A stretch of DNA of 34,720 nt from Jimgerdemannia flammicorona (Eukaryota): assembly GCA_003990765.1 (NCBI GenBank), contig RBNJ01000270.1, positions 1-34,720 of the forward strand. The letters run 5' to 3'. The notes beneath the pieces are model-generated. The model had not been told where the DNA came from, did no database searches, and saw only the letters and a program-made list of their open reading frames with translations. The position numbers were made by a program, and so were the translations under genes. Below are positions 9-33,276 of the stretch, in pieces. Positions within the stretch are counted from its first letter, which is position 1; every line of letters starts with the position of its first letter.

Positions 9-43
<35 letters not shown>
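9..43 (-). repeat. Poly(A) tail of the minus-strand family A copy (T35 on +)
   Basis: T run directly abuts ATAAAAC, the reverse complement of the repeat end GTTTTAT. Confidence 0.8.
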
Positions 44-47
<4 letters not shown>

Positions 48-528
48 AACAAGTAGATAATAGCGGAAGAGTTTAGAGCGAGATGTGATACTGTTACGGC
101 AGATATGAAGGTCGGCAGTAAAAGGTCAAACAGTTATGAAAAGCTTATGCGAATTTTCACGACGGAACAGAAAGTGGAATAAAGTGTTTTCTGAAGCTAG
201 ATCAGCAACCCGCCCTCAGCACCGCAATGTGCGGTGGTCTTTATTCATTTTAAGAAACAAAGTTCAGGTAAACAAAGACACGGATCTAACCCCAGAATTC
301 CGGAATCGGATAGGTGCATAAGTACTCGGACCTTGCCCCGATCCAAACAAAGGTCTGAATTGGGCTTCGTCAATCTACACACGTGATGGGCCATTAAAAA
401 CCCAATATAGTAACAACCGGGAAAAGGTACCGGTCACGTGATCTAATGTTACATAATCAGTAAACAATGCCAAAAACGGAACTAGACCAATGACGCAACA
501 TGTGTTGTCACGTGATTGTCACTTATAG
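44..528 (-). repeat. Family A terminal repeat (pLTR-like), 3' copy of minus element
   Basis: Direct repeat of 3930-4414 (offset 3886); reverse complement of 4615-5100 and 8501-8986. Confidence 0.9.
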
Positions 529-728
529 GTTTAAAAACCTAAAAATCGTCGGCACCCGAAGGCGCAGGCGTCAGGCCTAGAGCCTTGCGACCAGAGCGGA
601 GTAGAGCCTCAGCACCGGAGTGAGCGAAGCGAGCGGAGGTAGACAGGTGTCACGGAGCGTAGGTATGCAGGCATCAGGCCTAGAGCCTCGCGCCGGAGGT
701 TGTCCAGTGATTTTTCGCGTTTTTAAAC
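529..728 (-). other. Family A 200-bp GC-rich inverted-repeat-bounded module
   Basis: Begins GTTTAAAAAC and ends GTTTTTAAAC; internal direct repeat CAGGCCTAGAGCCT; contains GAGCGAAGCGAG. Confidence 0.85.
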
Positions 729-758
729 ATCGCACAGCACATACAAGCGGTGCGGCCT

Positions 759-2771
759 TCAAGGAGGACTTAGAGCGAAGCTGGTGTTTGAGACGGCATT
801 AAGAACAGTAAAACTGTTCTTTCGGGTGATGATTGGTCGCCGGGCGGTTGCAGGGAAACCAAAACGAAGCAAAGCGGTATGTAGAGTCTTGTCAGGCTGT
901 TGATGTAGCCATCGGGCCATGTCGTATTGGATGACAAGCAATGGGGGAGGAAAAGCGGAGTGGGGGATAGGGGGGTGGGAAATAAGAGGAGGGGTGAGAA
1001 GTGAAGTTCAGACCTCAAGCCAATCAAACAAACTCAATTGAGCAGTTACAACATCAACAGGGTATCCTTTCCTGTGAACCAGGAACTCGGTCAGAGACCG
1101 ACACTCATCAAGCCAATCACAGCGAGAAGAGCAGAGTAGCGAAAGGTGGCGGGCCTCGTTCACGATGCATAGACGGAGCATCTTCCTAGGATGATTGCTC
1201 AACTAGTCAACAAACTGAGTACTACATGGGAACTTAGCAAAGTGGCCTATGCAGAACGGTGCGACTCGGATTTCCAGGTCTAAGTAATGGCATGGTCCGG
1301 CGGACAAGACTTCCCATTCAATATGATGGTGCGGAGGGTACACGGCAGCAAAGATCGAGGCCAAGTCTATGATCGCGGGTGTAAAGACGATAAGATCATC
1401 AATATACCAGCGGAACTTTAGCTCGGCAGCAACGGCTCAGCTAAGCAGATGATCGGGCGCTTGCAAGGCGTACAACTCATAAGCAAAACCAACAAGATTG
1501 GTAAGGTCTGGAGCACAATTAGTGCCCATAGCAATACCAGTCACAGAGCAGAAGGAACCGATGGCAGATGTAAATGTTGTATGAGTCATGACTATGCGGA
1601 TAAGGCTGAGAATGGCTTCAAGTGGCAAGGAGCTAGAGGGGAAGGCCACCGTCAACAAAAAGGTGAGGCAGTCAATGTACTCATCTAATGTGATCCTGGT
1701 GTAGAAGGCAGCGAAATCTCCAGTAGCGATGTATAAGCAATCTGACATATCAAGGTAATCCGATCAAACCAATTGAAGCAGTTTGAGCATATCATACAGA
1801 GGTGAATAACAGGAATAACCCACATTACAGTGCAGATGGGCCGACCACAGACGGAGAAAGCGAGATAGGAAACGCGAAATCTCGGTTGTGGGAGAGTTAA
1901 ACGCACCAACGATAGGGCGCCATACCACATGAGCCCCTTTGTGTACCTTGGGCAGAGCGTGAAACATGGGTAGCTTACAATCGATGGGCTCCATGAGGTG
2001 TTCCCAAATCGGCATACAATCATGATCGCCGATGCAGAACTCGAGTAGACTAAGAAGGTCTAGCCTCACTAATTCCTTAACGTTATCAATCGTAGAGGGA
2101 TCATTCACATACGCAGGATCATGAAGGAGAGACCGAAGACTGTCGAGATAAAGAGTGCGCGGTATAATGGCGAACCCCAGATTCTTGTCGGTAAGACAGA
2201 CAGTGAAGTCATCATGAGTACAGACACCTTTAAGAAGGTGGCAGAACTTCTTCGGTACAAGCGCGCCGGACACATTCGTCGTGGGTCAGACAGCTTGATT
2301 CAAGGTGGCACTCATATGGAGCATAATCTGCATATTTTCCATACAGTGCAGCAGTCGCCATTTAGATGGCACCCAGGTGGAGATCTCCGGGATGTCATCA
2401 GGATTACCCATAGAGGTCCAGAAGGTGGCAAGGTCAAGATGCCATTGGAATGACGACAACGAAATTGGGTTGATGGTGCTGTTCATCGATGCCGACCTGG
2501 GGAGAACAAACTTAGGGCCAAAGTTCAGCATATACGTGAGCTCGGGGGTAAGCCAAGGCGGAGGTATATCGGTAACAAAGCCCTCCTCGGTAAACATCTG
2601 AAACCGAGGGACAAAAAACTGACTTAATCGAGAACTGGGAAGAGAAGACATGAAGGTAAAATCCTCAATTGGTGTCGAGGCCGCTACCCCACGTGGAATG
2701 GGGACATCGGGGCCAAACCACGCTGCTGGGAAGTCATATAAGACTTCCGGGCTGGGGACCTCTAGTTTTTT
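759..2771 (-). pseudogene. Family A PLE reverse transcriptase, interrupted by nonsense codons
   Basis: Same-frame fragments 2286-2651, 1764-2273, 1437-1748, 1008-1202 and 759-941 match the 6378-8207 protein (TDKN, LPKVHK..WRPIV, GDFAAFYT, GIAMGTNCAP, SNHP). Confidence 0.9.
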
Positions 2772-3919
2772 GACGCTAGAGGACAGGCATCACTGGCATT
2801 ATGCCAGACGACATGACGTTTAGTGGCAGTACACTTGTTGCACTGTGGCATAAATGCCCTGGCAGCGCTCTTAGATAAGCAGCTCGAAGTCGATGAGCGG
2901 CTAGTCCTGGTAGAAGTGGAGGAAATGGACAGGGAAGGCGAAGCCTTACACGCTCGCTTGACCCCTTTTACAGAACCTACTGTCAAAGCAGAGGCTAGGG
3001 GGCAAGGACCCCAGTGGGCCTTCGTCGGTACACCAAGACGTCCAGAACAGCTGTGACAGTTCGGCGCGGCAGAGGCCGAAGTCACATCCACCACCTTGGC
3101 CTTTCCTGCAGCCCCCGCAGGTACGGCGGTAGAGGGTGGGGGGGTGGGGACACTCTTTTTCGGTCAGGCGGAACCGGCAGCAGAGGCAAACGTGCATTTA
3201 GCATCCAGAGTAACAATCTCGAGGCGCTTCCCAAGCTCCTCAACCACAGCTTTGCGGGCGGCGGCAGAAATCCCATCTTGCAGGGAGGAGGACGCAGGGA
3301 CAGTCGGGTGGACTGCAGCAGCAGCAGCTTTAGCAGCGGCGGCAGTGGCAAGATAGCGAGATTGACGCATGACAACATCAAAACCACGGAACAAGAACAA
3401 GTTTGTCTTAGCTCTGTCGGTAGCAGCAAGGGTAGCAATATTCTTGGCAACCCCAAGAGTGATATCGACTGATACACCAAAAAACTGATGGGCATCGGAA
3501 GAACCACCCATGGCCTTGTTGATTTTAGCACGCTGGTCCTTAGCATGCTGGGCGGCAGCTTCTTGATCAGAAACGGCAGCCTCGATCGCGGCAGTGGTAC
3601 AGCGCTTAGCTTCTGCCGAAGCAGTAGCAAGGGTGGCATCACGCTGCTCCTTAGGTAGGAGGGCGATGGTAGCAGCTACCTTCTTGGAAGGAGTAAACCT
3701 CCAATCGGCAACTTGGGCCCGTAGGAAATTGGCATGGCATTCTTTCATGGCGGCGATCTCAAGGACAGAGAGCACTCCGGTGCAAGCAGCACGGAAGTAG
3801 GTAGGGACCTCGGCAGACGCGGCAGCAACATAGGCTGCAAGGTTGTCGAACTCCGCCAAATCGGCGAAGGAAGCTTTGGGGATGGCAGCATCGCCATCTA
3901 CATTCATATTATCTGTCAT
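2762..3919 (-). pseudogene. Family A ORF1 (Ala-rich, two CCHC-type fingers) with one internal stop
   Basis: ORFs 3164-3919 and 2762-3094 match 5110-6267; CGA has become TGA at 3164-3166. Confidence 0.88.
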
Positions 3920-3925
3920 GTTGTG

Positions 3926-4414
3926 TATTATAAAACGAGTAGATAATAGCGGAAGAGTTTAGAGCGAGATGTGATACTGTTACGGCAGATATGAAGGTCA
4001 GCGGTAAAAGGTCAAACAGTTATGAAAAGCTTATGTGAATTTTCATGACGGAACAGAAAGCGGAATAAAGTGTTTTCCGAAACTAGATCAGCAACCCGCC
4101 CTCAGCACCGCAATGCGCGGTGGTCTTTATTCATTTTAAGAAACAAAGTTCGGGTAAACAAAGACACAGATCTAACCCCAGAATTCCGGAATCAGATAGG
4201 TGCATAAGTACTTGGACCTTGCCCCGATCCAAACAAAGGTCTGAATCGGACTTCGTCGATCTACACACATGACAGGCCATTAAAAACCCAATATAGTAAC
4301 AACCGGGAAAAGGTACCGGTCACGTGATCTAATGTTATACAATCAGTAAACAATGCCAAAAACGGAACTAGACCAATGATGCAATACGTGTTGTCATGTG
4401 ATTGTCACTTATAG
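3926..4414 (-). repeat. Family A terminal repeat, 5' copy of minus element
   Basis: Direct repeat of 44-528; ends a few bases before the ORF1 ATG at 3919. Confidence 0.9.
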
Positions 4415-4614
4415 GTTTAAAAACCTAAAAATCGTTAGCACCCGAAGGCGCAGGCATCAGGCCTAGAGCCTCACGACCGGAGCGGAGTAGAGCCTCGGCA
4501 CTGGAGCGAGCGAAGTAAGCGGAGGTAGACAGGCATCACAGAGCGTAGGTACGCAGGCATCAGGCCTAGAGCCTCGCGCCGGAGGTTGTCCGGCAATTTT
4601 TCGCGTTTTTAAAC
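4415..4614 (-). other. Family A GC module forming the centre of the palindrome
   Basis: Same orientation as 529-728; the symmetric arms begin at its terminal GTTTAAAAAC/GTTTTTAAAC. Confidence 0.9.
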
Positions 4615-5103
4615 CTATAAGTGACAATCACATGACAACATGTGTTGTGTCATTGGTCTAGTTCTGTTTTTGGCATTGTTTACTGATTGTGTAACATTAG
4701 ATCACGTGACCGGTACCTTTTCCTGATTGTTACTATATCGGGTTTTTAATGGCCCATCACGTGTGTAGATCGACGAAGCCTGATTCAGACCTTTGTTTGG
4801 ATTGGGGCAAGGTCCGAGTACTTATGCACCTATCCGATTCCGGAATTCTGGGGTTAGATCTGTGTCTTTGTTTACCCGAACTTTGTTTCTTAAAATGAAT
4901 AAAGACTACTGCGCATTGCGGTGCTGAGGGTGGGTTGCTGATCTAGCTTCGGAAAACACTTTATTCCGCTTTCTGTTCTGTCGTGAAAATTCACATAAGC
5001 TTTTCATAACTGTTTGACCTTTTACCACCAACCTTCATATCTGCTGTAACAGTATCACATCTCGCTCTAAACTCTTCTGCTATTATCTACTTGTTTTATA
5101 ATA
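4615..5103 (+). repeat. Family A terminal repeat, 5' copy of plus element (probable promoter/5'UTR)
   Basis: Direct repeat of 8501-8989; immediately upstream of the ATG at 5110; clustered CACGTG sites. Confidence 0.9.
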
Positions 5104-5109
5104 CACAAT

Positions 5110-6267
5110 ATGACAGATAATATGAATGTAGATGGTGATGCTGCCGTCCCCAAAGCTTCCTTTGCCGATTTGACGGAGTTCGACAACCTTGCAGCCTATG
5201 TTGCTGCCGCGTCTGCCGAGGTCCCTACCTACTTCCGTGCTGCTTGCACCAGAGTGCTCTCTGCCCTTGAGGTCGCCACCGCGAAAGAACGCTGTGCCGA
5301 TTTCCTATGGGCCCAAGTTGCCGATTGGAGGTTTACTCCTTCCAAGAAGGTAGCTGCTGCCATCGCCCTCTTACCTGAGGAGCAGCGTGATGCCGCCCTT
5401 GCTACTGCTTCGGCAGAAGCTAAGCACTATGCCATTGCCGCGATTGAGGCTGCCGTTTCGGATCAAGAAGCTGCCGCCCAGCATACTAAGGACCAGCATG
5501 CTAAAATCGACAAGGCCATGGGTGGTTCTTCCGATGTCCATCAGTTTTTTGGTGTATCGGTCGATATCACTCTTGGGGTTGCCAAGAATATTGCTACCCT
5601 TGCTGCCACCAACAGAGCTAAGACGAACTTGTTCTTGTTCTGTGGTTTTGACATTGTCGTGCATCAATCTCGCCGTCTTGCCGCCGCCGCCGCTGCTAAA
5701 GCCGCCGCTGCTGCAGTCCGTCTGACTGTCTCTGCATCCTCCTCCCTGCAAGATGGGATTTCTGCCACCGCCCGCAAAGCCATGGTTGAGAAGCTTGGGA
5801 AGCGCCCCGAGATTGTTACTCCGGGTGCTAAACGCACATTTGCCTCTGCTGCTGGTTCCGCCCGACCGAAAAAGAGTATCCCCACCCCCCCACCCTCTAC
5901 CGCCGTGCCTGCGGGGGCTGCGGGAAAGGCCAAGGTGGTAGATGTGACTTCGGCCTCTGCCACGCCGAACTGTCGCAGCTGTTCTGGATGTCTTGGTGTG
6001 CCGACGAAGGCCCACTGGGGTCCTTGCCCCCTAGCCTCTGCTTCGACAGTAGGTTCTGTAAAAGGGGTCAAGCGAGTGCGTAAGGCTTCGCCTTCCCCAT
6101 CCATTTCCTCCACTTCTACTGGGACCAGCCGCTCGTCGACTTCAAGCTGCTCGTCTAAGAGCGCTGCCAGGGCATTTGTGCCGCAGTGCAACAAGTGTAC
6201 TGCCACTAAACGTCATGTCGTCTGGCATAATACTGGCAATGCCTGTCCTCTAGCGTCAAAAAACTAG
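5110..6267 (+). CDS. Family A ORF1, 385 aa, Ala-rich helical region plus two C-terminal CCHC-type zinc fingers (Gag-like role inferred)
   Basis: Intact ORF containing CRSC-x10-H-x3-C and CNKC-x9-H-x5-C; same architecture as family B ORF1. Confidence 0.85.
   Translation: MTDNMNVDGDAAVPKASFADLTEFDNLAAYVAAASAEVPTYFRAACTRVLSALEVATAKERCADFLWAQVADWRFTPSKKVAAAIALLPEEQRDAALATASAEAKHYAIAAIEAAVSDQEAAAQHTKDQHAKIDKAMGGSSDVHQFFGVSVDITLGVAKNIATLAATNRAKTNLFLFCGFDIVVHQSRRLAAAAAAKAAAAAVRLTVSASSSLQDGISATARKAMVEKLGKRPEIVTPGAKRTFASAAGSARPKKSIPTPPPSTAVPAGAAGKAKVVDVTSASATPNCRSCSGCLGVPTKAHWGPCPLASASTVGSVKGVKRVRKASPSPSISSTSTGTSRSSTSSCSSKSAARAFVPQCNKCTATKRHVVWHNTGNACPLASKN
6258..6264 (+). promoter_or_regulatory. Putative -1 ribosomal frameshift heptamer A AAA AAC
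   Basis: In ORF1 phase just before its TAG. The -1 frame is open for 38 codons into the RT ORF and encodes YDFPAAWFGPDVP, homologous to family B NFPPAWFSPDVP. Confidence 0.75.
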
Positions 6268-8270
6268 AGGTCCCCAGCCCAGAAGTCTTATATGACTTCC
6301 CGGCAGCGTGGTTTGGCCCCGATGTCCCCATTCCACGTAGGGTAGCGGCCTCGACACCAATTGAGGATTTTGCCTTCGTGTCTTCTCTTCCCGGTTCTCG
6401 ATTAAGTCAGTTTTTCGTCCCTCGGTTTCAGATGTTTACCGAGGAGGGCTTTGTTACTGATATACCTCCGCCTTGGCTTACCCCCGAGCTCACGTATATG
6501 CTGAACTTTGGCCCTAAGTTTGTTCTCCCCGGGTCGGCATCGATGAACAGCACCATTGACCCGATTTCATTGTCGTCGTTCCAACGGCGTCTTGACCTTG
6601 CCACCTTCTGGACCTCTATGGGTAATCCTGACGACGTCCCGGAGATCTCCGCCTGGGTGCCATCTAAATGGCGACCACCGCACTGTATGGAAAATATGCA
6701 GATTATGCTCCATATGAGTGCCGCCTTGAATCAAGCTATCCGACCCATGACGAATGTGTCCAGCGTACTTGTACCGAAGAAGTTCTGCCACCTTCTTAAA
6801 GGCATCCGTACTCATGATGACTTCACTGTCTGTCTTACCGACAAGAATCTGGGGTTCGCTGTTATATTGCGCGCTCTTTATCTCGACGGTCTTCGGTCCC
6901 TTCTTTACGATCCTGCATACATGAATGATCCCTCTACGATTGATAACGTTAAGGAATCAGTGAGGCTAGACCTTCTTAGTCTACTCGAGTTCTGCATTGG
7001 CGATCATGATTGTATGCCGATTTGGGAACACCTCATGGAGCCCATCGATTGTAAGCTACCCGTGTTTCACGCTCTGCCCAAGGTACACAAAGGGGCTCAC
7101 ATGGCATGGCGCCCTATCGTTGGTACGTTTAACTCTCCCACGACCAAGATTTCGCGTTTCCTATCTCGCTTTCTCCATCTGTGGTCGGCCCATCTGTGCT
7201 ATAATGTGGGTTATTCCCGTTATTCACCTCTGCGTGATATGCTCGAACTGCTTCAATTGGTTCGATCGGATTACCTTGATGTGTCAGATTGCTTATACGT
7301 CGCTACTGGAGATTTCGCTGCCTTCTATACCAGAATCACATTAGATGAGTGCATTGACTGCCTCACCTTTTTGTTGATGGTGGCCTTCCCCCCTGGCTCC
7401 TTGCCGCTTGAAGCCATTCTCGGCCTTGTCTGTATAGTCATGACTCATACGACGTTTATATCCGCCATCGGTTCCTTCCGCTCTGTGACTGGTATTGCTA
7501 TGGGCACTAATTGTGCTCCAGACCTTGCCAATCTTGTTGGTTTTGCTCATGAGTTGCATGCCTTGCAAGTGCCTGATCATCTGCTTAGCCGAGCCGTCGC
7601 TGCCGAGCTAAAGTTCCGCCGGTATATTGATGATCTTATTGTCTTTACGCCCGCAATCATGGACTTGGCCTCGATCTTTGCTGCCGTGTACCCTCTGCAC
7701 CATCGTATCGAATGGGAAGTCTTGTCCGCCGGACCATGCCATTACTTAGACCTGGAAATCCAAGTCGCACTGTTCCACACAGACCGCTTTGCTAAGTTCC
7801 CGCGTAGTACTCAGTTTGTTGACTGGTTGAGCAATCATCCTAGGAAGACGCTCCGTCTATGCATCGTGAACAAGGCCCGCTGCCTTTCGCTACTCTGCTC
7901 TTCTCGCCGTGATTGGCTTGATGAGTGTCGGTCTCTGGCCAAGTTCCTGGTTCACAGGAAAGGATACCCTGTTGATGTTGTAACCGCTCAATTGAGTTTG
8001 GTTGATTGGCTTGAGGTCCAAACTTCACTTCTCACCCCTCCTCTTATTTCCCACCCCCCTATCCCCCACTCTGCTTTTCCTCCCCCATTGCTTGTCATCC
8101 AATACGACACGGCCCGATGGCTACATCAACAGCCCGACAAGACTCTACGTACCGCTTTGCTTCATTTTGGTTTCCCTGCGACCGCCCGGCGACCAATCAT
8201 CACCTGAAAGAACAGTTTTACCGTTCTTAATGCCGTCTCAAACACCAGCTTCGCTCTAAGTCCTCCTTGA
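6264..8270 (+). CDS. Family A Penelope-like reverse transcriptase with no endonuclease domain; premature TGA at 8205-8207, consensus stop 8268-8270
   Basis: Motifs LTDKNLG, FHALPKVHK..WRPIVG..SPT, GDFAAFYT, GIAMGTNCAPDLANL, RRYIDD, HYLDL, SNHP. The minus copy reads through with Arg at the premature stop. Confidence 0.92.
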
Positions 8271-8300
8271 AGACCGCACCGCTTGTACATGCCGTGCGAT

Positions 8301-8500
8301 GTTTAAAAACATGAAAAATCGCCGGACAATCACCGGCGCGAGGCTCTAGGCCTGACACCTGCATACCTACGCTCCGTGACACCTGTCTACCTCCGCTCGC
8401 TTCACTCGCTCCGGTGCCGAGACTCTACTCCACTCCGGTCGCGAGGCTCTAGGCCTGACGTCTACACCTTCGGGTGCCGACGATTTTTAGATTTTTAAAC
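8301..8500 (+). other. Family A GC module downstream of RT
   Basis: GTTTAAAAAC..AAAAATCG at start and CGATTTTT..TTTTTAAAC at end; reverse complement of 529-728. Confidence 0.85.
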
Positions 8501-9005
8501 CTATAAGTGACAATCATGTGACAACACGTGTTGCATCATTGGTCTAGTTCCGTTTTTGGCATTGTTTACTGATTGTGTAACATTAGATCACGTGACCGGT
8601 ACCTTTTCCCAGTTGTTACTATATTGGGTTTTTAATGGCCTGTCACGTGTGTAGATTGACGAAGCCCGATTCAGACCTTTGTTTGGATCGGGGCAAGGTC
8701 CGAGTACTTATGCACCTATCCGATTCCGGAATTCTGGGGTTAGATCCGTGTCTTTGTTTACCCGAACTTTGTTTCTTAAAATGAATAAAGACCACCGCGC
8801 ATTGTGGTACTGAGGGTGGGTTGCTGATCTAGCTTTGGAAAATACTTTATTCCGCTTTCTGTTCCATCATGAAAATTTGCATAAGCTTTTCATAACTGTT
8901 TGACCTTTTACTGCTGACCTTCATATCTGCCATAACAGTATCACATCTCGCTCTAAACTCTTCTGCTATTATCTACTCGTTTTATAATAAAAAAAAATAA
9001 AAAAA
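8501..9005 (+). repeat. Family A 3' terminal repeat plus A-rich tail
   Basis: Repeat of 4615-5103, followed by an A-rich run instead of ORF1. Confidence 0.88.
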
Positions 9006-9054
9006 TTAGTTATGAGTCTTTTGAGATATCTATTAGAATGTATCTATATTGGCA
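9005..9054 (+). repeat. 50-bp flanking sequence identical to 21053-21102 (probable remnant of target duplication)
   Basis: ATTAGTTATGAGTCTTTTGAGATATCTATTAGAATGTATCTATATTGGCA occurs at both places. Confidence 0.85.
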
Positions 9055-9375
9055 GAGGAGGAAGAAGGCCCAGCGGGAGCCAAGGGAGCAAACCCAGAGC
9101 CAGTGTCAAAACAAACGGAAGACATGTGGAAGAGCATGTATAAGGGGGACGAACAAAGAACGTAACCGAAAATGCATCAGCCGTTTATTGCCATGTAAAA
9201 ACGCAGTCCTTATATACAAAATACAACATCCCAAAAGGGAGGATGCACCACAACTCAGGGCGAACCGAATTAGGAACCACATGACCACCGGAGATAGGTG
9301 GAGATAAAGGGGGAGCCAATCTCAGTTGTAGGATAAAAATCACAAACAAACACAAACAAAACAAATCCAAATCGA

Positions 9376-9556
9376 GATTAAAAAACATCCGCAGACCCCG
9401 GAGGGGTGAGCGCGAGCGAGGGGTGAGGCCGAAACGGAGTGAGCTGCAGTGAGCCCGAGCAAAGCGAGGGGCCGAAGGCAGCAGAGGGGAGTGGAGTAAG
9501 GCCGAGACCCCGGAGCGAGCGCGAGACCCCAGAGAGGGCAAGGATGTTTTTTAATC
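9376..9556 (-). other. Family B 181-bp GC module
   Basis: Perfect 15-bp inverted repeat GATTAAAAAACATCC / GGATGTTTTTTAATC at its ends. Confidence 0.88.
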
Positions 9557-11605
9557 CTCTCTGGCAGAACCGGAGGTACCAGAAGGTGATGAAAATGCAA
9601 AACAAGAGCGATGGATTGAAGAAGAAATGGAAGGAAGACACGAATGAGCAATCAGAGGGCATCGGGAAAGAGATGAAAGTCCATGGCGTGAAAGAGAAGA
9701 GCGCAGGATGGTATCAGGGCATTGAGCAACCCAGCGAGTATGATCAAATGGTACGATAAGAATTGGGGGTGGGAAAGAAGAGGGGGTACGGAGAGGGTAA
9801 GGGGGGAGAGAGGGAAGGGAGGGGGGATAAAGAGGAGAGAGTAGGGTAGATCGAACAACAGATCATTCAACAGAAGCAAGTAGATCACGAACGATAGAAA
9901 TAGGGTAGGCATGATGATGGACCACGAAGTTGCCAAGAACCCGAACAGCAGACACCCAATAAGAACAACGGGAGCAGCATAATGCAAGACGATGAGCCTC
10001 ACCCCGAATACATTCAAGAAGAGTGCGACGAGGATGATTGGACAAGAAGTCAGGGAACTGTTGGGAATGGGGAAAACGAGAATAAACAACAGTTCGGAAA
10101 GGAGAAAGAGAAATGGAAAGGTCCAAAAAGGGAATACTAGTCATACCGCACACCCAGGTAATAGAATGGTGGGGAGGGTAGACATCCAGGAACACACTAG
10201 GGATATCAACACCAGCAACAGTGAAGACAATAAAGTCATCAATGTATTGGCAAAAGAAGATATCCCCAGCCCGGAACGTAATGGAAAGAGGTGAAGTAAT
10301 ATCACATAATGCACGCAGTTCATGGGCCAGGCCAACGAGGTTGGCAAGGGTGGGGGCACAATTCGTACCCATGGCAATACCAGAAGTCTGGTGAAAGGAG
10401 CCAAGGGCCGACTCAAAATAATTAGAGCCACAGACGAGGAGCGTAAGCTCAACAATAGAAGCCAGCGAAACCAGGGAATCCAAAGGAAAAACCAAGGAAC
10501 CCAAGAAGCGAAGACAATTATCGATCTCATCAAAACGAATAGCAGTATAGAAGGAAGAGAAGTCACCAGAGGCCAAATGGGAAAAGCGATGAACAGGCAC
10601 AATGGTGGAGCAGAGAAGGGCGAGCTCCTGAGTATCGTGAAGAATAGTATACTCAGGCCCAAGATGGTGTTGTAAGAGAGCCATCTAGGAGAGAAAGAAG
10701 TTGGATAACCACTTCGAAATCTCGGTGGTAGGAGAACTGTAAGCAGCCATAATAGGACGCCAAGCCAAAATAGGCTTGTGAACTTTAGGAAGAGCATAGA
10801 AAACTGGAAGAGAAATATCCGGGGAGGACAAAGAGTCCTGGAAGAAGTTAAAAATGGGGTTCACGAATGGGAAATCCGAAAGTGATCTAGCATGAGCCAG
10901 AGAAACCCGAAGAAGAGTGAGAACCTCATCCAATCCAAGAGCACTAGGCTCGTAAGCCATGGCTCGAAGGAGGGCAGAAAGGCCATCAAGGTAGAGCGAC
11001 TTAGGAATAAGTACAAAACCCTGATTCTTATCAGTGACTGTGAGCAGATACATAGGCAATTGCTTGACCGATTTAAGCATGGTATGCATGGCACGGTCCG
11101 AAACCAAGCAAGAGCGAGCTTGTATAGGAATGGACAGTGAGTAAGCCATGTCAAGGAATATGCAGTGTGAAGAGACATTGAGAGGGGGGACCCAATCACT
11201 AGGGACAAAGTAGCGGGAGGGCATCTCACCACGATCTTGAAAGAAAATGGCAAGGTCAAGAGCACGACAAAAATGTGTAAGATGAGCCAGATCAGTGAAG
11301 GAGAATTGTGAGGGAGTCGCAGGAAAAACAAAGTGAGGACCCAAGGATAAGGCAAAGACTTGAAGGGGAGAAAGGGGGCAGTTAGCCAAAGAAAAAGGAG
11401 GAGACAAAAGTGTTCCAAGAGAAGAGTAAACCCGAAAGTTCAGAACAAGCAACTGGGAAAGACGAAGGGGGGACAACATGAGGAACCACTCAGGGTGCAC
11501 CAGAAGCGACGACGGAATCTGAGAAGGGACGGGGACATCGGGGGAGAACCACGCCGGGGGGAAGTTTAAGAGTGGGAGGCCTTCCCCTTCCCTCTGACTT
11601 TTTTT
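9551..11605 (-). pseudogene. Family B PLE reverse transcriptase copy 1, with nonsense codons
   Basis: ORFs 10685-11635 and 9863-10684 are in one frame: TDKNQG, LPKVHK..WRPI, GDFSSFYT, GIAMGTNCAP, YIDD, SNHP. Confidence 0.9.
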
Positions 11606-12794
11606 GAAGGTGGCGAGCCCGACGAATGGGAGCACATCCCGTCAGAGTGCCAGACCTTGCAGCCACAGGCTTTCATGCAGCCCTTACATTCAGGGGCACA
11701 GGTGGAGGAGGCGGAGGAGGAACCAGCAGAGGAGGCCGAAGGTGAGCGAGCAGCTGGAGGGACAGCAGCACGAGGAACACCACCATGAGGACAGACGGAC
11801 TTGGCTGGGTGCCAGTAGGCACAGTGGAGGCAACCGGAGCAGACGCGCAAGGCCAGGCCCTGACAGGGCGAGAACCAAGTTGGCGGCCATACTTGGGGGC
11901 AGGGGGAACGGAGGAGGAAGCCTTGGCGGGGGAGGGGGACCAGGAAGAGGCCGATGAAGCCTGGTTGGGCTTGGTGGGGGTCTTGGTGGGGGTCTTGGAG
12001 AGGGCCTTGGCGGTGGCGGCAGTGAAGGAACGAACCTCAGCACGAGCAGCAGCACGAGCTTCGGCACGGATGGCCTCAGAGACTGAAACCTCGGGGGAGG
12101 TAGGCAGAGGAGCAGTGGCAGTGGCACGAGCAGCGGCGGCAGTACGTGATGACTCTTGCTCGTGAAGGTGAGTAATAAAAGAGGTGCCAGCGAGAAGGAA
12201 ACGATATACAGCGTTGATGTTGGCAGCGACAGAAGGAATGTCTTGGATGGTGAAGCTGCAGAAAGGGGCAGCATCCGAAAGGTGAGAGGAGGCGAAGGCC
12301 ACGAAAGCGGCACAGGCACGTTGGAAGGAGGTGGAAGCAGTGGCGGCGGAAGCAGTGGCAGCATCAGTGGTAGCATCAGTGGCAGCGAGCTTGGTGGTAG
12401 TAGTGGTGGCACGAACCTCTTTGGAGAGGGCTTGGCGGCGGGCCTCGGGGAGAACAGAGTAGCGGACAGCGGGTGGAGCGACGACATCGACATTACAGCG
12501 GAGATGAGCCTCCTTGGCGGAGAGGGCAAGAACCGACTGGAACTGAGAGAGGAGTGGATGACCAGAAGGACAAAGGTCCAGGGGAAGGGAAAGGATGGCA
12601 GAAGAGACATAGGTCTCGAAGGAGACAGTGGCGGGGGTGAAGGCAGGGGGAGGAGGAGGAGGAAGTACCTCATCCATGAGCTCGTCGATGAGGACGGAGG
12701 CCCCGAGGGCAGACAGTACAGCAGAGGAGAAAGAAGGCCCAGCAGGAGCCAAGGGAGCGAACCCAGAGCCAGTGTCAAAACGAACGGAAGACAT
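11566..12794 (-). pseudogene. Family B ORF1 copy 1, frameshifted before the zinc fingers
   Basis: N-terminal part of 11673-12794 plus 11566-11850 together match 17133-18350. Confidence 0.85.
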
Positions 12795-13044
12795 GTGGAA
12801 GAGTGTGTATAAGGGGGACGAATAAAGAATGTAACCGAAAATGCATCAGCTGTTTATTGCCACGTAAAAACACGGTCCTTATATACAAAATACGACGTCC
12901 CAAAAGGGAGAACGTGCCACAACTCGGGGCAAACCGAATTAGGAACCACATGACTGCCGGAGATAGGCGGAGATAAAGGGGGAGCCAATCCCAGTTGCAG
13001 GATAAAAATCACAAACAAACACAAACAAAACAAATCCAAATCAA

Positions 13045-13225
13045 GATTAAAAAACATTCTTGCCCCCTCCGAGGTCTTGCGCTCACTCCGGGGTCTCGGC
13101 CTTACTCTGCTCCCCTCCGCTGCCTTCGGCTCCTTGCTTCGCTCGGGCTCGCTGCGGCTCGCTCCATTTCGGCCTCACCCCTCACTTGCGCTCACCCCTC
13201 TGGGGTCTGCAGATGTTTTTTAATC
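13045..13225 (+). other. Family B GC module at the centre of the palindrome
   Basis: Matches 16702-16882; symmetric arms start at the GATTAAAAAACAT / ATGTTTTTTAATC repeat. Confidence 0.9.
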
Positions 13226-13475
13226 TCGATTTGGATTTGTTTTGTTTGTGTTTGTTTGTGATTTTTATCCTGCAACTGGGATTGGCTCTCCCTTTATCTC
13301 CGCCTATCTCCGGCAGTCATGTGGTTCCTAATTCGGTTCGCCCCGAGTTGTGGCACGTCCTCCCTTTTGGGACGTCATATTTTGTATATAAGGACCACGT
13401 TTTTACGTGGCAATAAACGGCTGATGCATTTTCGGTTACGTTCTTTATTCGTCCCCCTTATACACGCTCTTCCAC

Positions 13476-14692
13476 ATGTCTTCCATTCGTTTTGACACTG
13501 GCTCTGGGTTTGCTCCCTTGGCTCCTGCTGGGCCTTTTTCCTCCTCTGCTGTACCACCTGCCCTCGGGGCCTCCGTCCTCGTCGACGAGCTCATGGATGA
13601 GATACTTCCTCCTCCTCCTCCCCCTGCCTTCACCCCCGCCACTGTCTCCTTCGAGACCTACGTCTCTTCTGCCATCCTTTCCCTCCCCCTGGACCTTCAT
13701 CCTTCTGGTCGTCCGCTCCTCTCTCAGTTCCGGTCGGTTCTTGCCCTCTCCGCCAAGGAGGCTCATCTCCACCATGATGTCGACGTCGTCGCTCCGCCCA
13801 CCATCTGCTACTCTATTCTCCCCGAGGCCCGCTGCCAAGCCCTCTCTGAAGAGGTTTGTGCTGCCACTACTGCCACCAAGCTTGCTGCCGCTGATGCTGC
13901 TGCTGCTTTCGCCGCCACTGCTTCTGCCTCCTTCCAACATACCTGTGCCGCTTTCGTGGCCTTCGCCTCCTCTCGCCTTTCGGATGCTGCCCCTTTCTGT
14001 GGCTTCGCCATCTAAGACATTCCTTCTGTCGCTGCTGACATTGACGCTGTACATCGTTTCCTCCTCACCAGCACCTCTTTTGTTGCTTGCCTTTATGAGC
14101 AGGAGTCATCACATGCTGCCGCCGCTGCTCATGCCGCTGCCACTGCTCCTCTGCCTATCTCCCCCGAGGTTTCGGTCTCCGAGGCCATCCGTGCTGAAGC
14201 TTGTGCTGCTGCTTGTGCTGAGGTTCATTCCTTCGCTGCTGCCGCTGCCAAGGCCCCCTCCAAGACCCCCGCCAAGACCCCCGCCAAGCCCAATCAGGCT
14301 TCGTCGGCCTCTTCCTGATCCCCCTCCCCCACCAAGGCTTCCTTCTCCATTCCCCCTGCCCCAAGCATGGCCGCCAACTTGGTTCTCGCCCTGTCGGGGC
14401 CTGGCCTTGCGCTGTCTGCTCCGGTTGCCTCCATCGTGCCTACTGGCACCCAGCCAAGTCCGTCTGTCCTTATGGTGGTGTTCCTCACGCTGCTGCCCCT
14501 CCAGCTGCTCACTCGCCTTCGGCCTCCTCTGCCGGTTCCTCCTCCGCCTCCTCCATCCGTGCCCCTGAATGTAAGGGCTGCACGAAAGCCTGTGGCTGCA
14601 AGGTCTGGCACTCTGATGGGGTGTGCTCCCATTCGTCGGGCTCGCCACCTTCAAAAAAAGTCAGAGGGAAGGGGAAGGCCTCCCGCTCTTAA
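13476..14692 (+). pseudogene. Family B ORF1 copy 2 (stops and a frameshift)
   Basis: MSSIRFDTGSG start; CAA has become TAA at 14013-14015; matches copy 3. Confidence 0.85.
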
Positions 14693-16707
14693 ACTTCCCC
14701 CCGGCGTGGTTCTCCCCCAGTGTCCCCATCCCTTCTCGGATTCCGTCGTCGCTTCTGGTGTGCCCTGAGTGGTTCCTCATGTTGTCCCCCCTTCGCCTTT
14801 CCCAGTTGCTTGTCCCGAACTTTCGGGTTTACTCTTCTCTTGGAACACTTTTGTCTCTTCCTTTTTCTTTGGCTGACTGCCCTCTTTCTCCCCTTCAAGT
14901 CTTTGCCTTATTCTTGGGTCCTCGCTTTGTTTTTCCTGCGACTCCCTCACAATTCTCCTTCACTGATCCGGCTCGTCTTATACGTTTTCGTCGTGCTCTT
15001 GACCTTGCCATTTTCTTTCAAGATCGTGGTGAGATGCCCTCCTGCTACTTTGTCTCTAGCAATTGGGTCCCTCCTCCCAATGTCTCTTCACACTGCGTAT
15101 TCCTCGACATGGCTTGCTCACTGTCCGTTCCTGGATGAGCTCACTCTTGCTTGGTTTCGGACCATGCTGTGCGTACCGCACTTAAATCGGTCAAGCAATT
15201 GCCTATGCACCTACTCACAGTCACTGATAAGAATCAGGGTTTTGCACTTATTCCTAAGTCGCTCTACCTTGATGGCCTTTCTGCCCTCCTTTGAGCCACG
15301 GCTTACGAGCCTAGTGCTCTTGGATTGGATGAGGTTCTCACTCTTCTTCGGGTTTCTCTGGCTCATGCTAGATCGCTTTCGGATTCCCCGTTCGCGAACC
15401 CCATTTTTAACTTCTTCCAGAACTCTTTGTCCTCCCCGGATGTTTCTCTTCCAGTTTTCTATGCTCTTCCTAAAGTTCACAAGCCTATTCTGGCTTGGCG
15501 TCCTATTACAGCTGCTTACAGTTCTCCTACCACCAAGATTTCGAAGTGGTTATCCTGCTTCTTTCTCTCCTGGATGGCTCTCTTACAACACCGTCTTGGG
15601 CCTGAGTATACTATTCTTCGCGATACTCAGGAGCTCGCCCTTCTCTGCTCCACCATTGTGCCTGTTCATCGCTTTTCCCATTTGGCCTCTGGTGACTTCT
15701 CTTCCTTCTATACTGCTATTCGTTTTGATGAGATCGATGATTGCCTTCGCTTCTTGGGTTCCTTGGTTTTTCCTTTGGATTCCCTGGTTTCGCTGGCTTC
15801 TATTGTTGAGCTTACGCTCCTTGTCTGCGGCTCTAATTATTTTGAGTCGGCCCTTGGCTCCTTTTACCAGACTTCTGGTATTGCCATGGGTACGAATTGT
15901 GCCCCCACTCTTGCCAACCTCGTTGGCCTGGCCCATGAACTGCGTGTGTTACGTGATATTACTTCACCTCTTTCCATTGCGTTCCGGGCTGGGGATATCT
16001 TCTTTCGCCGATACATTGATGACTTTATTATCTTCACTGTTGCTGGTATTGATATCCCTAGTGTGTTCCTGGGCGTCTACCCTCCCCACCATTCTATTAC
16101 CTGGGTGTGCGGTATGACTAGTATTCCCTTTTTGGACCTTTCCATTTCCCTTTCTTCTTTCCAAACTGTTGTTTATTCTCGTTTTCCCCGTTCCCAACAG
16201 TTCCCTGACTTCTTGTCCAATCATCCTCGTTGCACTCTTCTTGAATGTGTTCGGGGTGAGGCTCATCGTCTTGTATTATACTGCTCCTGTCGTTCTGATT
16301 GGGTGTCTGCTGTTTGGGTTCTTGGCAACTTCGTGGTCCATTGTCGTGCCTACCCTATTTCTATTGTTCGTGATCTGCTTGCTTCTGTTGAATGGTCTGT
16401 TGTTTGATCTACCCTACTCTCTCCTCTTTATCCCCCCTCCCTTCCCTCTCTCCCCCCTTACCCTCTCCGTACCCCCTCTTCTTTCCCACCCCCGATTCTT
16501 GTCATACCATTTGATCATGCTTGCTGGGTTGCTCAATGCCCTGATACCGTCCTGCGCTCTTCTCTTTCATGCCATGGACTTTTATCTCTTTCCCAATGCC
16601 CTCTGATTGCTCGTTCGCATCTTCCTTCCATTTCTTCTTCAATCCATCGCTCTCGTTTTGCGTTTTCATCACCTTCTGGTGCCTCCAGTTCTGCCGGAGA
16701 GGATTAA
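14653..16707 (+). pseudogene. Family B PLE reverse transcriptase copy 2, several CGA-to-TGA stops
   Basis: ORFs 14623-15138 and 15325-16407 are in one frame with RRYIDD; the natural TAA lies inside the module inverted repeat. Confidence 0.9.
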
Positions 16708-16882
16708 AAAACATCCTTGCCCCCTCCGGGGTCTCGCGCTCGCTCCGGGGTCTCAGCCTTACTCTGCTCCCCTCTGCTGCCTTCGGCCCCTCGCTTCACT
16801 CGGGCTCGCTGTGGCTCACTCCGTTTCGGCCTCACCCCTCGCTCACGCTCACCCCTCCAGGGTCTGCAGATGTTTTTTAATC
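16702..16882 (+). other. Family B GC module between tandem copies
   Basis: GATTAAAAAACATC...GATGTTTTTTAATC; internal repeat CCCCTCCGGGGTCT. Confidence 0.85.
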
Positions 16883-17132
16883 TCGATTTGGATTTGTTTT
16901 GTTTGTGTTTGTTTGTGATTTTTATCCTGCAACTGGGATTGGCTCCCCCTTTATCTCTGCCTATCTCCGGCGGTCATGTGGTTCCTAATTCGGTTCGCTC
17001 CGAGTTGTGGCACATCCTCCCTTTTGGGATGTCATATTTTGTATATAAGGACCACGTTTTTACGTGGCAATAAATGGCTGATGCATTTTCGGTTACGTTC
17101 TTTGTTTGTCCCCCTTATACATGCTCTTCCAC

Positions 17133-18350
17133 ATGTCTTCCGTTCGTTTTGATACTGGCTCTGGGTTCGCTCCCTTGGCTCCCGCTGGGCCTTCTTCCTC
17201 CTCTGCTGTACCGCCTGCCCTTGGGGTCTCCGTCCTCATCGACAAGCTCATGGATGAGGTACTTCCTCCTCCTCCTCCCCCTGCCTTCACCCCTGCCACT
17301 GTCTCCTTCGAGACCTACATCTCTTCTGCCATCCTTTCCCTCCCCCTGGACCTTCGTCCTTCTGGTCGTCCGCTCCTCTCTCAGTTTCAGTCGGTTCTTG
17401 CCCTCTCCGCCAAGGAGGCTCATCTCCGCTGTGATGTTGACATCATCGCTCCGCCCACTGTCCGCTACTCTGTTCTCCCCGAGGCCCGCCGCCAAGCCCT
17501 CTCCGAAGAGGTTCGTGCCGCCACTGCCACCACCAAGCTCGCTGCCGCTGATGCTGCCACTGCTTCCACCGCCACCGCTTCCGCCTCCTTCCAACGTGCC
17601 TGTGCCGCTTTCGTGGCCTTTGCCTCCTCTCGTCTTTTGGATGCTGCCCCTTTCTGCGGCTTCGCCATCCAAGATGTTCCTTCTATCGCTGCTGACATTG
17701 ACGCTGTATGTCGTTTCCTCCTTGCCGGCACCTCTTTTGTTGCTCGCCTTCACAAGCAGGAGTCATCACGTGCTGCCGCCGCTGCTTGTGCCACTGCCAC
17801 TGCTCCTCTGCCTACCTCCCCCGAGGTTTCGGTCTCCGAGGCCATCTGTGCCGAAGCTCGTGCTGCTGCTTGTGCTGAGGTTCATTCCTTCGCTGCCGCC
17901 GCTGCCAAGGCCCCCTCCAAGACCCCTGCCAAGACCCCTGCCAAGCCCAACCAGACTTCGTTGGCCTCTTCCCGGTCCCCCTCCCCCACCAAGGCTTTCT
18001 CCTCCATTCCCCCTGCCTCCAAGCGTAGCTGCCAACTTGGTTCTCACCCTGTCGGGGCCTGGCCTTGCGCTGTCTGCTCCAGTCACCTCCACTATACCTA
18101 CTGGCACCCGGCCAAGTCCGTCTGTCCTCATGGTGGTGTTCCTCGCACTACTGTCCCTCTAGCTGCTCGCTCGCCTTCGGCCTCCTCTGCCAGTTCCTGC
18201 TCCGCCTCCTCCACCTGTGCCCCTGAATGTAAGGGCTGCACGAAAGCCTGTGGCCATAAGGTCTGGCACTCTGATGGGGTGTGCTCCCATTCATCGGGCT
18301 CGCCACCTTCAAAAAAAGTCAGAGGAAAGGGGAAGGCCTCCTGCTCTTAA
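17133..18350 (+). CDS. Family B ORF1 copy 3, 405 aa, Ala-rich with two CCHC-type zinc fingers
   Basis: Open frame; CAVC-x9-H-x5-C and CKGC-x9-H-x4-C, each with WH. Confidence 0.85.
   Translation: MSSVRFDTGSGFAPLAPAGPSSSSAVPPALGVSVLIDKLMDEVLPPPPPPAFTPATVSFETYISSAILSLPLDLRPSGRPLLSQFQSVLALSAKEAHLRCDVDIIAPPTVRYSVLPEARRQALSEEVRAATATTKLAAADAATASTATASASFQRACAAFVAFASSRLLDAAPFCGFAIQDVPSIAADIDAVCRFLLAGTSFVARLHKQESSRAAAAACATATAPLPTSPEVSVSEAICAEARAAACAEVHSFAAAAAKAPSKTPAKTPAKPNQTSLASSRSPSPTKAFSSIPPASKRSCQLGSHPVGAWPCAVCSSHLHYTYWHPAKSVCPHGGVPRTTVPLAARSPSASSASSCSASSTCAPECKGCTKACGHKVWHSDGVCSHSSGSPPSKKVRGKGKASCS
18311..18317 (+). promoter_or_regulatory. Putative -1 frameshift heptamer A AAA AAA (also 14653-14659 and 11599-11605 minus)
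   Basis: ORF1 reads tcA AAA AAA gtc while the RT frame is -1; a possible pseudoknot follows. Confidence 0.65.
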
Positions 18351-20365: not shown

Positions 20366-20860
20366 AAAACATCCTTGCCCCCTCCAGGGTCTCATGCTCA
20401 CTCCAGGGTCTCGGCCTTACTCTGCTCCCCTCCGCTGCCTTCGGCCCCTCGCTTCGCTCAGGCTCGCTGTGGCTCGCTCTGTTTCGGCCTCACCCCTCGC
20501 TCGTGCTCACCCCTCCAGGGTCTGCAGATGTTTTTTAATCTTGATTTGGATTTGTTTTGTTTGTGTTTGTTTGTGATTTTTATCCTGCAACTGGGATTGG
20601 CTCACCCTTTATCTCCGCCTATCTCCGGCGGTCATGTGGTTTCTAATTCGGTTCACCCCGAGTTGTGGCGCATCCTCCCTTTTAGGACGTCATATTTTGT
20701 ATATAAGGACCGCATTTTTACATGGCAATAAATGGCTGATGCATTTTTGGTTATGTTCTTTGTTTGTCCCCCTTATACACACTCTTCCACATGTCTTCCA
20801 TTCATTTTGACACTGGCTCTGGGTTCGCTTCCTTGGCTCCCGCTGGGCCTTCTTCCTCCT
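20360..20860 (+). repeat. Family B terminal GC module, terminal repeat and first ~70 nt of ORF1
   Basis: Repeat of 16702-17202; similarity stops at CTTCTTCCTCCT. Confidence 0.88.
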
Positions 20861-21102
20861 TGACTTCATTACTTATTTCTTCTTATATTTCAGTATAATT
20901 AGTAGTTTTTCTTTCTTTAGTATTTCTCTATTAGTTTTGAATTGTTTTTAGATTCTGTTAATAATTATTTATATTTATTCTTTTAGATATTAGAGTATCT
21001 TTCACTATCTCAGATAGATGATAACTCTATAGTAAAGTTTCTTATCTCCTTTATTAGTTATGAGTCTTTTGAGATATCTATTAGAATGTATCTATATTGG
21101 CA

Positions 21103-30335: not shown

Positions 30336-30488
30336 GCTGCTGCCAACCCCACCGACCACTGCCCACTTGGGCCACAAACTCCAGACTGAGTCCTTAGGGT
30401 TTTTTACCTTTTTTATTATTTTTAAAAGGTATTAAATATTTCATATGGCCAACCAACTTATCCACAAACCCCCAGGGCCTACAGAATT

Positions 30489-32900: not shown

Positions 32901-33276
32901 AAAAAGTATCAATAGGTGTGTCTTAATTTTTTACCTATAATAATTACAAACAACATTATCTCCTATCTTAGCACAATATTGCCAGATTTTGGAGCAAATA
33001 TTACGTGAAAGGTATGGAACTATTAGGAATGTTTGACTTGAAGCATCATTGGTACTGTGAAATGTTGAAGACTGATCTATTGATATGTGTGTTTGTGTAT
33101 TTGCATATGTATGTATTGTAACAGACCAAAAACGTACCACCTGAATTATAACTTAGCCAGATGATGCGAACAATTAGCATACTTACTCAGCATGATGTGA
33201 CTTCCAGTGTATCATAGTTACTCATGCCCGCCACACTTATAATTAGCCAAGACACCAGATCAGGATTGTTTACCTG

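Follow-up and report, generated by a model that had tools for sequence, protein, structure and literature searches.

Two palindromic insertions in one contig

The window that we analysed is one whole contig (C270) of 34,720 bp from the Jimgerdemannia flammicorona assembly, which has 231 Mb in 35,354 contigs. It contains two palindromic insertions, a dimer of one element family (family A, positions 9-9005) and a palindrome of a second one (family B, 9052-20860). In both families the order of the unit is module, UTR, ORF1, reverse transcriptase (RT), module, UTR. The modules, 200 nt long in A and 177 nt in B, are the start of the pseudo-LTR in two endonuclease-less Penelope-like element (PLE) families, which have hundreds of copies in the genome. 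A first look gave 281 module A, 722 module B and 821 A RT matches, which are candidates and not copy numbers. Copies decay mainly by C>T/G>A changes. The features are collected in Table 1.

Table 1 Features of the window. The element lies on the strand given for its parts; features of the predicted rod are given on the strand that would fold.
Feature	Position	Strand	Remark
Outer end of A left arm: 3' UTR repeat (42-528), A-tail (poly-T on +, 9-41)	9-528	-	
Module A1, after RT	529-728	-	Element on -, so + is the cDNA strand predicted to fold into the rod
Rod foot, left arm (terminal inverted repeat)	529-539	+	Predicted to pair with 717-728
ccGAAgg	556-562	+	Its GAA faces GGA 695-697 in a predicted 3x3 purine loop
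Internal direct repeat copy 1, self-complementary words	564-589	+	Predicted to pair with copy 2, forming a long stem
Shared 11-mer	593-603	+	Strand of predicted duplex CC/GG - GGA/GTA - GC/GC - GGA/GGA - GT/AC
Apex hairpin with shared 13-mer (621-633)	614-640	+	C(GAA)G, GC/GC, GA/GA, GC/GC, GGA/GGA, ACC/GGT
Duplex partner ACGGAGCG	652-663	+	Conserved in B too
Internal direct repeat copy 2	666-692	+	
Rod foot, right arm	717-728	+	cDNA 3' end if the module is copied last
Family A left arm, decayed: RT region 729-2761, ORF1 2762-3919	729-3919	-	
A left-arm UTR	3921-4414	-	Adjoins the axis
Central module A2	4415-4614	-	Axis of the 9-kb palindrome
A right-arm UTR	4615-5109	+	Each A UTR has three CACGTG words
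ORF1 of family A, 385 aa	5110-6267	+	Two C-terminal CxxC..H motifs, no Pfam family
Penelope-like RT, 609 aa	6378-8207	+	TDKNLG, GIAMG, YIDD; no GIY-YIG domain
Module A3, after RT	8301-8500	+	
Outer end of A right arm: UTR repeat to nt 489, A-rich tail	8501-9005	+	
50-bp target-DNA copy	9005-9054	+	Identical to 21053-21102
Outer end of B left arm: UTR and first 73 nt of ORF1	9052-9375	-	Tail-less
Module B1, after RT	9378-9554	-	+ strand predicted to fold
Family B left arm: RT region, ORF1, UTR	9555-13042	-	
Central module B2	13047-13223	+	Axis of the B palindrome; oriented as the longer, two-unit arm
Family B right arm: two tandem units	13226-20860	+	Ends 69 nt into ORF1
Module B3	16704-16880	+	
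Module B4	20362-20538	+	

The RT motifs listed in Table 1 align as Penelope-type motifs, and the RT gives weak RVT_1 matches. Its structural model (pLDDT 61) has telomerase RT as top matches (TM 0.35), and a search against the sequences of solved structures returned weak RT matches only. The closest named RT relative is from Racocetra fulgida (37% identical). No GIY-YIG match to Pfam was found in the RT or ORF1 of either family, and the motif is absent from the 194 aa after YIDD; among 60 scanned relatives, two carry a GIY-YIG domain. ORF1 had no homologs, no Pfam family and no useful atlas match. The RT frame is open over 658 aa and overlaps the end of ORF1 in another frame (about 6231-6267), and the listed RT start is a GTG at 6378; translation of the RT by frameshift or reinitiation is possible. 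The A UTRs (35-528, 3921-4414, 4615-5109, and 8501-8989) contain repeated palindromic CACGTG words, candidates for a promoter active in both directions, and the inverted UTR upstream of the central module could drive a full-length RNA. To the right of the B insertion, 21100-26500 is C-poor and G/A-rich with many stop codons, and probably represents an old transposon, mutated heavily by C>T changes, that B used as its target. Tandem arrays at 29698-30340 (units of ~85 and 116 bp) and 33258-33371 (19-bp units) are unrelated to the modules.

In a quick tree of 47 rows, built without named reference elements, A and B form one branch with four relatives (P0001, P0004, P0005, and P0006) with a support of 100; this branch is long and its position is weakly placed. 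In protein searches with P0004 and P0006, the matches that could be placed were A and B copies. For P0001, P0004-P0006 and P0009, the closest outside relatives, a metagenome scan gave only matches of 21-37% identity, viral contigs gave none, and prokaryote contigs gave distant stray contigs only. The module is absent from distant relatives with 21-29% RT identity. The distant RT relatives at 64 metagenome loci (L086-L149; 21-37% identity) are largely circular or tandem contigs of 3.1-4.0 kb with terminal repeats. Hammerhead-like CTGANGA..GAAA cores are present in them, in some cases on both strands, and the extended apex motif described below is absent; 20 of the 64 loci were scanned with Rfam and gave no match. 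Rfam gave no match in window positions 1-21200 either. No ribozyme or known RNA family was found in the elements here; the lone CTGANGA..GAAA sits in the A RT frame and is absent from B.

The insertions are mirror images around a single module

One module is the exact axis of the palindrome in the window and in 10/10 A dimers at fetched loci, which had been picked for inverted RT pairs; the same was found at B loci. The arms carry 0, 1 or 2 units. Arms of the same insertion are sisters in all ten A insertions (2-24 transversions, compared with at least 30 for non-sisters) and in 5/5 multi-unit B insertions; the A arm tree was made without C113, whose left arm is interrupted. The central module has the orientation of the longer arm in 16 of the 17 insertions with unequal arms (P = 3e-4), the sole exception being C720.

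The junctions contain two further marks. Four of 17 central A modules, belonging to at least two lineages, have their first 12 nt exchanged for a sequence exactly complementary to the other foot, and this replacement was seen in none of 57 readable A modules located after an RT (P = 0.002) and in none of 20 central B modules. Such a converted foot reads as the footprint of a 3' end that paired inside the stem and was then extended. At locus C35, the poly-A end is joined to module nucleotide ~28 by a template jump, which shows that the sense RNA was the template and the antisense module the end of the nascent cDNA.

In family A, both outer ends stop at UTR nucleotide ~489 and are followed by variable A-rich tails. 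In family B, the ends stop at ORF1 nucleotides 68-78 without tails, and these sites recall the internal initiation described for the Penelope RT PAc (PMC11167929). The tails at the two ends of an A insertion are often unlike, and the supposed second arm can have the longer tail, which suggests that both ends were primed separately and not copied through. We also compared short arms with the UTRs next to and far from them. In C15108 the poly-A tail of the short arm is identical to that of the long arm, both being contig ends, and in C465 two private transversions of the short arm recur in the adjacent UTR but not in the far one. Of nine B short arms, six resemble the adjacent UTR more closely, one the far UTR, and two are tied; the single A short-arm case leans to the far UTR, with an identical tail at both contig ends. 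The assignment of short arms to either UTR was dropped, as its signal is mostly swamped by decay.

The insertions have flanking sequence on either side within their contigs. Three of eight A insertions are bounded at both ends by direct target duplications, of 310, 462 and 715 bp. None were found in the other five A or in 11 B insertions (C5994 is left out of the B count), where duplications below ~12 bp were judged by eye in the junctions only, and longer duplications abutting both ends were not seen within up to 7.5-8 kb at four A and seven B loci. The (TTAGGG)2 repeat was not found in the window or at 11 extended loci. Since target duplications are variable or absent and no (TTAGGG)2 is nearby, the pattern would fit priming at existing breaks.

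These features raise the question of how many cDNAs make one palindrome. We favour, as discussed below, a single cDNA that folds back on itself. The same DNA fold may instead act in trans: the two ends of a break would prime separate cDNAs on two RNAs, or at two sites of one RNA, and the feet of these cDNAs would anneal, while the fold protects or presents each end. Stops of both outer ends at one site with independently varying tails are explained better in this way than by fold-back in cis, and the long target duplications at both ends of three A insertions also argue for it. A Penelope RT extends both target strands in vitro and is predicted to be a dimer (PMC11167929), and foot conversion would be expected equally. 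However, symmetric joining predicts a central module in either orientation, and the observed one follows the longer arm with one exception. Arms of different lineages were found in 0/15 insertions, though a single active source would hide mixing. We consider two cDNAs unlikely, while regarding them as a serious alternative.

Several other observations concern the targets and shapes of insertions. A 240-bp target stretch abutting the B end (20861-21100) is present, 100% identical and reversed, to the right of the B copy of C778, which is 91% identical to the B copy of the window and shares the nick of its left end; this suggests a long duplication and a rearrangement between broken ends. The 50-bp copy between the two insertions of the window is likely a remnant of a long target duplication around B. 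Locus L033 (C25682) is a mini-palindrome of ~820 bp with the order end, UTR, module, UTR, end and without ORFs, the product that fold-back at the first module would give. One DNA sequencing run contained fragments of B-like copies and no joints.

One strand of the module is predicted to fold into a rod with G·A pairs

We derived majority sequences from 49 copies of A and 33 of B and folded them. The antisense (cDNA) strand of each module is predicted to form a single rod, in which GA/GA and GNA/GNA loops alternate with short Watson-Crick blocks and C(GAA)G forms the cap. From the apex, the A rod runs through the C(GAA)G loop, GC/GC, GA/GA, GC/GC, GGA/GGA and ACC/GGT, and then through an internal duplex of GT/AC, GGA/GGA, GC/GC, GGA/GTA and CC/GG. 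In the lower part, the two internal direct repeats are paired together, followed by GAA/GGA and the terminal inverted repeat. The B rod has the same apex, closed by CCC/GGG, with a second GAA hairpin alongside and ten purine-only loops between helices of 2-5 bp below it. Between A and B, the apex and the duplex are kept while neighbouring pairs are swapped (G-C to C-G; CC/GG to GG/CC), and the polarity of the duplex is opposite. Within each family, non-decay changes are too few for covariation.

The fold accounts for motifs that a first-pass annotation of the window had reported as common to both modules. Its 13-mer is the apex of the rod and its 11-mer is one strand of the internal duplex; the partner of the latter, ACGGAGCG, was not in its list and is kept up to decay in 74/74 A and 57/57 B copies. 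As majority sequences, the motifs are indeed common to A and B, but as exact sequences they do not hold in the decayed copies of the window. Among its seven modules, the 13-mer has no exact copy (one mismatch in six, two in the seventh), and the 11-mer is exact in one with one mismatch in the other six. In fetched copies, the 13-mer is exact in 22/74 A and 26/57 B modules, and copies that differ by C>T/G>A decay only amount to 74/74 and 56/57 for the 13-mer and to 73/74 and 55/57 for the 11-mer. The motif TTAAAAA is present at both ends of all seven modules, and the internal direct repeats of A were found as annotated (564-589 and 666-692).

The annotation had also drawn attention to cGNAg mini-hairpins. 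These are in place on the antisense strand (556-562, 624-630 and 693-699 in A1; 9395-9407 and 9471-9479 in B1; gcGAAgc in B2 and B4), and none were found on the sense strand in the seven modules. Their number exceeds shuffled controls in some modules, with a weak enrichment overall: against 2000 dinucleotide shuffles, P = 0.025, 0.12 and 0.41 for A1-A3, 0.015, 0.10, 0.010 and 0.051 for B1-B4, and 0.055 and 0.009 for the majority sequences. Mini-hairpin density was therefore rejected as the main signal. The antisense strand is purine-rich throughout the element (sense purine fraction 0.42 in A and 0.32 in B, the same in modules). Several of the listed mini-hairpins are not local and face each other across the rod, as GAA 558-560 and GGA 695-697 do in A. 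We note that, on the sense RNA, the sequence complementary to ccGAAgg of A is a cUUCGg hairpin.

The rod itself stands out more clearly. Each family has five sheared-type loops, compared with at most three in 300 shuffles and at most two (A, 96 windows) or three (B, 80 windows) elsewhere in the element. The order of G first and A last holds for 10/10 loop strands in A and 16/20 in B (P ~1e-6 and 4e-7 under a purine-only null). Unpaired positions are purines in 40/50 (A) and 69/71 (B), and G·T wobbles are found in 1/75 pairs (A) and 0/54 (B). The fold is a computed one, and its energies include a bonus of our own choice for G·A loops in DNA. If the bonus is left out, the A rod is unchanged under plain RNA parameters and the B rod almost so. 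With plain DNA parameters, the sense strand of B yields the lower helices again, now with loops of pyrimidines, while the inner part of A is not recovered. The plain energy of the modules is equalled by GC-rich windows elsewhere in the element. The RNA:DNA hybrid, at about -300 kcal/mol, is far more stable than the rod, and thus the RNA must be removed before folding. We rejected the idea of a weak hybrid that lets the rod strip the cDNA from the RNA, as the hybrid is 11-31 kcal/mol weaker in this orientation but still much more stable than the rod.

RNA, too, can hold sheared G·A loops and tandem G·A pairs stably, and the choice between DNA and antisense RNA as the folding molecule has to be weighed from other evidence. 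An antisense RNA through the module might fold and prime itself, as proposed for Penelope, or regulate the element. Plain RNA parameters give the same antisense rod (-98.5 and -87.5 kcal/mol), the palindrome makes an antisense module RNA unavoidable, and an antisense template and bidirectional pLTR promoters have been proposed (PMC3846280). Against this, the apex C(GAA)G is a DNA-type triloop, and the corresponding RNA mini-hairpins are far less stable (PMC13037366). One wobble pair in 129 would also be unusual for an RNA rod, and the outward poly-A ends and the jump in C35 show that the template was a sense RNA. An antisense RNA thus appears improbable to us. In DNA, tandem sheared G·A pairs and GGA/GGA zippers are well established, and such structures form on the purine strand but not on the pyrimidine one (PMC11014236); GCGAAGC-type loops are much more stable in DNA than in RNA (PMC13037366). 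We infer that the rod functions as DNA, in the cDNA.

Individual copies show events at the fold. C1659 has lost the whole module after the RT between GATT repeats, the central module of C1134 has lost its inner 73 nt between paired GGCC stems, that of C465 has lost 17 nt across the apex, and L204 has a partial duplication. These changes are typical of slippage across a hairpin.

We also searched for the apex outside the two families. A third family with the motif was not found in the same genome among the matches listed (the first 100 places of each search, of which 30 and 20 were examined), which were A, B, a 5.16-kb repeat and scattered singles only; the repeat (L190-L193, L207-L209) is unrelated, in tandem units of ~5.16 kb and without a PLE RT match. 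An 18-mer of the apex is present in at least 121 viral contigs (104 flank clusters), compared with 8 for one control of the same composition that is unable to form the loop. In many of these contigs (L210-L330), which are unrelated to each other, it is grouped with similar G·A hairpins in stretches that look non-coding. The excess over the control suggests that the hairpin design is convergent. A 66-nt core compared with plasmids gave chance-level matches and none that were meaningful.

The recurrence in phage contigs bears on the proposal of the first-pass annotation that the module is an origin. Such an origin would be an entry site for primase or a host polymerase on single-stranded DNA, like G4 ori or plasmid ssi, serving the second strand or an extrachromosomal linear form. 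Mini-hairpins of this type are found at G4 ori, ssiA and N4 promoters (PMC13037366). In our elements, on the other hand, junctions lie at the rod foot with continuous sequence, as expected for covalent fold-back, and the RT is the only replication protein. We regard an origin as very improbable. As the 5' end of a Penelope-type pseudo-LTR and the precise axis of palindromic insertions, the module is more likely a site where cDNA primes by fold-back or is joined than one of primase-type initiation.

Conservation of the module

In the ten A insertions, transversion columns common to both arms were counted as inherited. There are 2 in 200 columns of the module, compared with 40/495 and 41/489 in the UTRs, 96/1158 in ORF1 and 70/2033 in the RT (P = 1e-4, 8e-5, 2e-5 and 0.06, respectively). 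Arm-private changes, which arose after insertion, have similar rates across regions (1.5-2.7%). Few inherited transversions at equal private rates indicate that the interior of module A is constrained, beyond the inverted repeat. By this measure, module A is under stronger purifying selection than ORF1 or the UTRs, and its difference from the A RT is not significant (P = 0.06). In the younger family B, the module has 0/179 compared with 1.2-1.6% elsewhere, which is not significant (P = 0.16-0.27).

This result bears on a simpler view, in which only the A/T-rich inverted repeat matters and the interior consists of repeated words, such as promoter or protein sites in duplex DNA. The ladder would then be a by-product, as GAGC-type repeats self-pair automatically. 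Both families are built of low-complexity words (GAGC, GGAGC), and with two families only, convergence could account for the motifs that they share. Direct repeats make up part of the rod arms, the purine skew is element-wide, the mini-hairpin counts alone are weak, and the switch point is within the foot. But several helices are complementary and yet unrepeated (ACC/GGT, GT/AC, CCC/GGG, GGGGT/ACCCC), which duplication does not yield. The swapped neighbouring pairs, the conservation of the whole A interior beyond the foot, and the excess of the apex 18-mer in viral contigs over a control that cannot form the loop are also at odds with a by-product, and we judge it improbable, marginally more so than an antisense RNA. 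The reading of the first-pass annotation that the module is selected to fold as single-stranded DNA on the cDNA strand is supported, on better grounds than triloops: a strand-specific rod in both families, purifying selection in the A interior, the C(GAA)G apex and few G·T wobbles. Our analysis supports the view that this 200-nt stretch is kept by selection for the potential of its antisense DNA strand to fold into a long hairpin with G·A pairs.

A model for the mirror arm

Our conclusions concern dead copies of two families in one genome. The anatomy of the insertions, the strand-specific fold potential, the selection and the junction footprints are observations, from which we propose that the cDNA folds back through the rod and serves as primer for the mirror arm. 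We hold this to be the best explanation, with a confidence slightly above even. The model supposes that the fold forms, in DNA and in cis, and that a protein binds it.

In this model, the module, as the first 180-200 nt of the pseudo-LTR, would act in first-strand cDNA. As the sequences show, the sense RNA, in the unit order given above, is copied from a fixed 3' site, the poly-A UTR end in A and about nucleotide 70 of ORF1 in B, and copying would be primed by a free 3' end of chromosomal DNA. When the cDNA reaches the 5' module, it may fold into the rod, with Watson-Crick blocks of 2-10 bp stacked through tandem sheared G·A pairs and GNA/GNA zippers and closed by the C(GAA)G loop. The complementary strand, with TC/TC and TCC/TCC loops, cannot pair in this way, so that the RNA and the chromosomal duplex would remain comparatively relaxed. 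The rod would set the 3' end of the cDNA flush on the inverted repeat of the foot, where the mirror arm could be primed. The new strand may then capture the other broken DNA end, again at the fixed site; early capture would give a short arm, common in B, and late capture the full dimer usual in A. The captured product would open into a palindrome with the module as its axis. The apex and the internal duplex are the likeliest contact points for the RT or ORF1, as candidate sites. Self-priming at palindromes on the antisense strand has been proposed for Penelope (PMC3846280).

A broader and more tentative idea, which we think possible but rather doubtful, is that a nuclease-less PLE branch replaced hammerhead and telomere targeting with a cDNA G·A rod. 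Recognised by the RT or ORF1, the rod would be a cap similar to a hairpin telomere and the primer of the mirror copy, bridging breaks genome-wide and so leading to hundreds of copies, in convergence with phage hairpin arrays. If true, a natural, selected and non-canonical DNA fold would be a cis-element of a eukaryotic retroelement. Apart from this idea, the elements would be a case of a telomerase-related RT that spreads at internal breaks.

Comparison with known systems

Parvovirus and poxvirus termini have an imperfect hairpin between perfect inverted arms, as A and B would, and self-prime from a terminal fold, as proposed here; A and B differ in having an RNA intermediate and in lacking a Rep/NS1 nickase or resolvase. 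The un-opened intermediate proposed here would resemble the plasmid pFOXC, a DNA made by an RT, which ends in a hairpin on one side and in reiterated repeats on the other (PMC3035579). This plasmid is free, protein-primed and mitochondrial, whereas A and B are chromosomal and target-primed with a PLE-type RT, judging from the integrated copies, which alone are visible. DNA mini-hairpins and G-zippers at G4 ori, ssiA, the N4 promoter and human satellite III share with the rod the C(GNA)G loops, sheared G·A pairs and GGA/GGA zippers (PMC13037366, PMC11014236), but the module would be one non-repetitive rod of 180-200 nt at the insertion axis of a eukaryotic retroelement. G·A zippers, known from model oligonucleotides and satellite DNA, would here be a rare case under measurable purifying selection.

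Among endonuclease-deficient PLEs, Coprina and Athena likewise have no nuclease, a DKN-motif RT related to telomerase RT and two ORFs (PMC8557442, PMC13159263), and a fungal host, probable for A and B, is a further common feature. Coprina is telomeric and has hammerheads (PMC13159263). In contrast, A and B have hundreds of internal copies, a palindromic layout, no terminal telomeric repeats and no hammerhead, and with four relatives they form their own long branch in our quick tree, in which named Coprina or Athena references were not included. Canonical PLEs with and without endonuclease have a hammerhead in the pseudo-LTR. Fungal nuclease-less elements are said in PMC3846280 to lack the direct-plus-inverted layout. 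In the literature outside subscription papers and Repbase, we found no description of a G·A-laddered module or of an internal palindromic fungal PLE without endonuclease.

The closest parallels are endonuclease-containing Penelope/Poseidon elements (Pen2a_Av, Pen2_Av and Pen3a_Av of Adineta vaga; PAc), which have direct and inverted pseudo-LTRs (PMC3846280, PMC11167929), as A and B have direct, inverted and partial-tandem ones. Penelope/Poseidon, Neptune and Naiad/Chlamys have a GIY-YIG domain C- or N-terminal to the RT; A and B differ from Penelope/Poseidon in lacking this domain and in having a separate ORF1 and frequent full-length dimers. Target duplications are hundreds of bases or none in A and B, compared with 8-10 bp in Penelope/Poseidon. 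The palindromes at Penelope junctions have 18-38 bp, where A and B have a rod of 180-200 nt that contains purine-purine loops. These short palindromes have been interpreted as sites of self-priming, with an antisense template that is left unspecified (PMC3846280), and PMC8557442 and PMC11167929 state the formation of inverted PLE structures and of the second strand as open. The pseudo-LTR layout is already known from Penelope, and the G·A rod is not. In our analysis, the module corresponds to the Penelope pseudo-LTR palindrome in a longer, strand-specific and apparently DNA-built form, within a nuclease-less internal family. A long palindrome on one strand with DNA-type non-canonical pairs in such an element bears on how the mirror arms of PLEs form.
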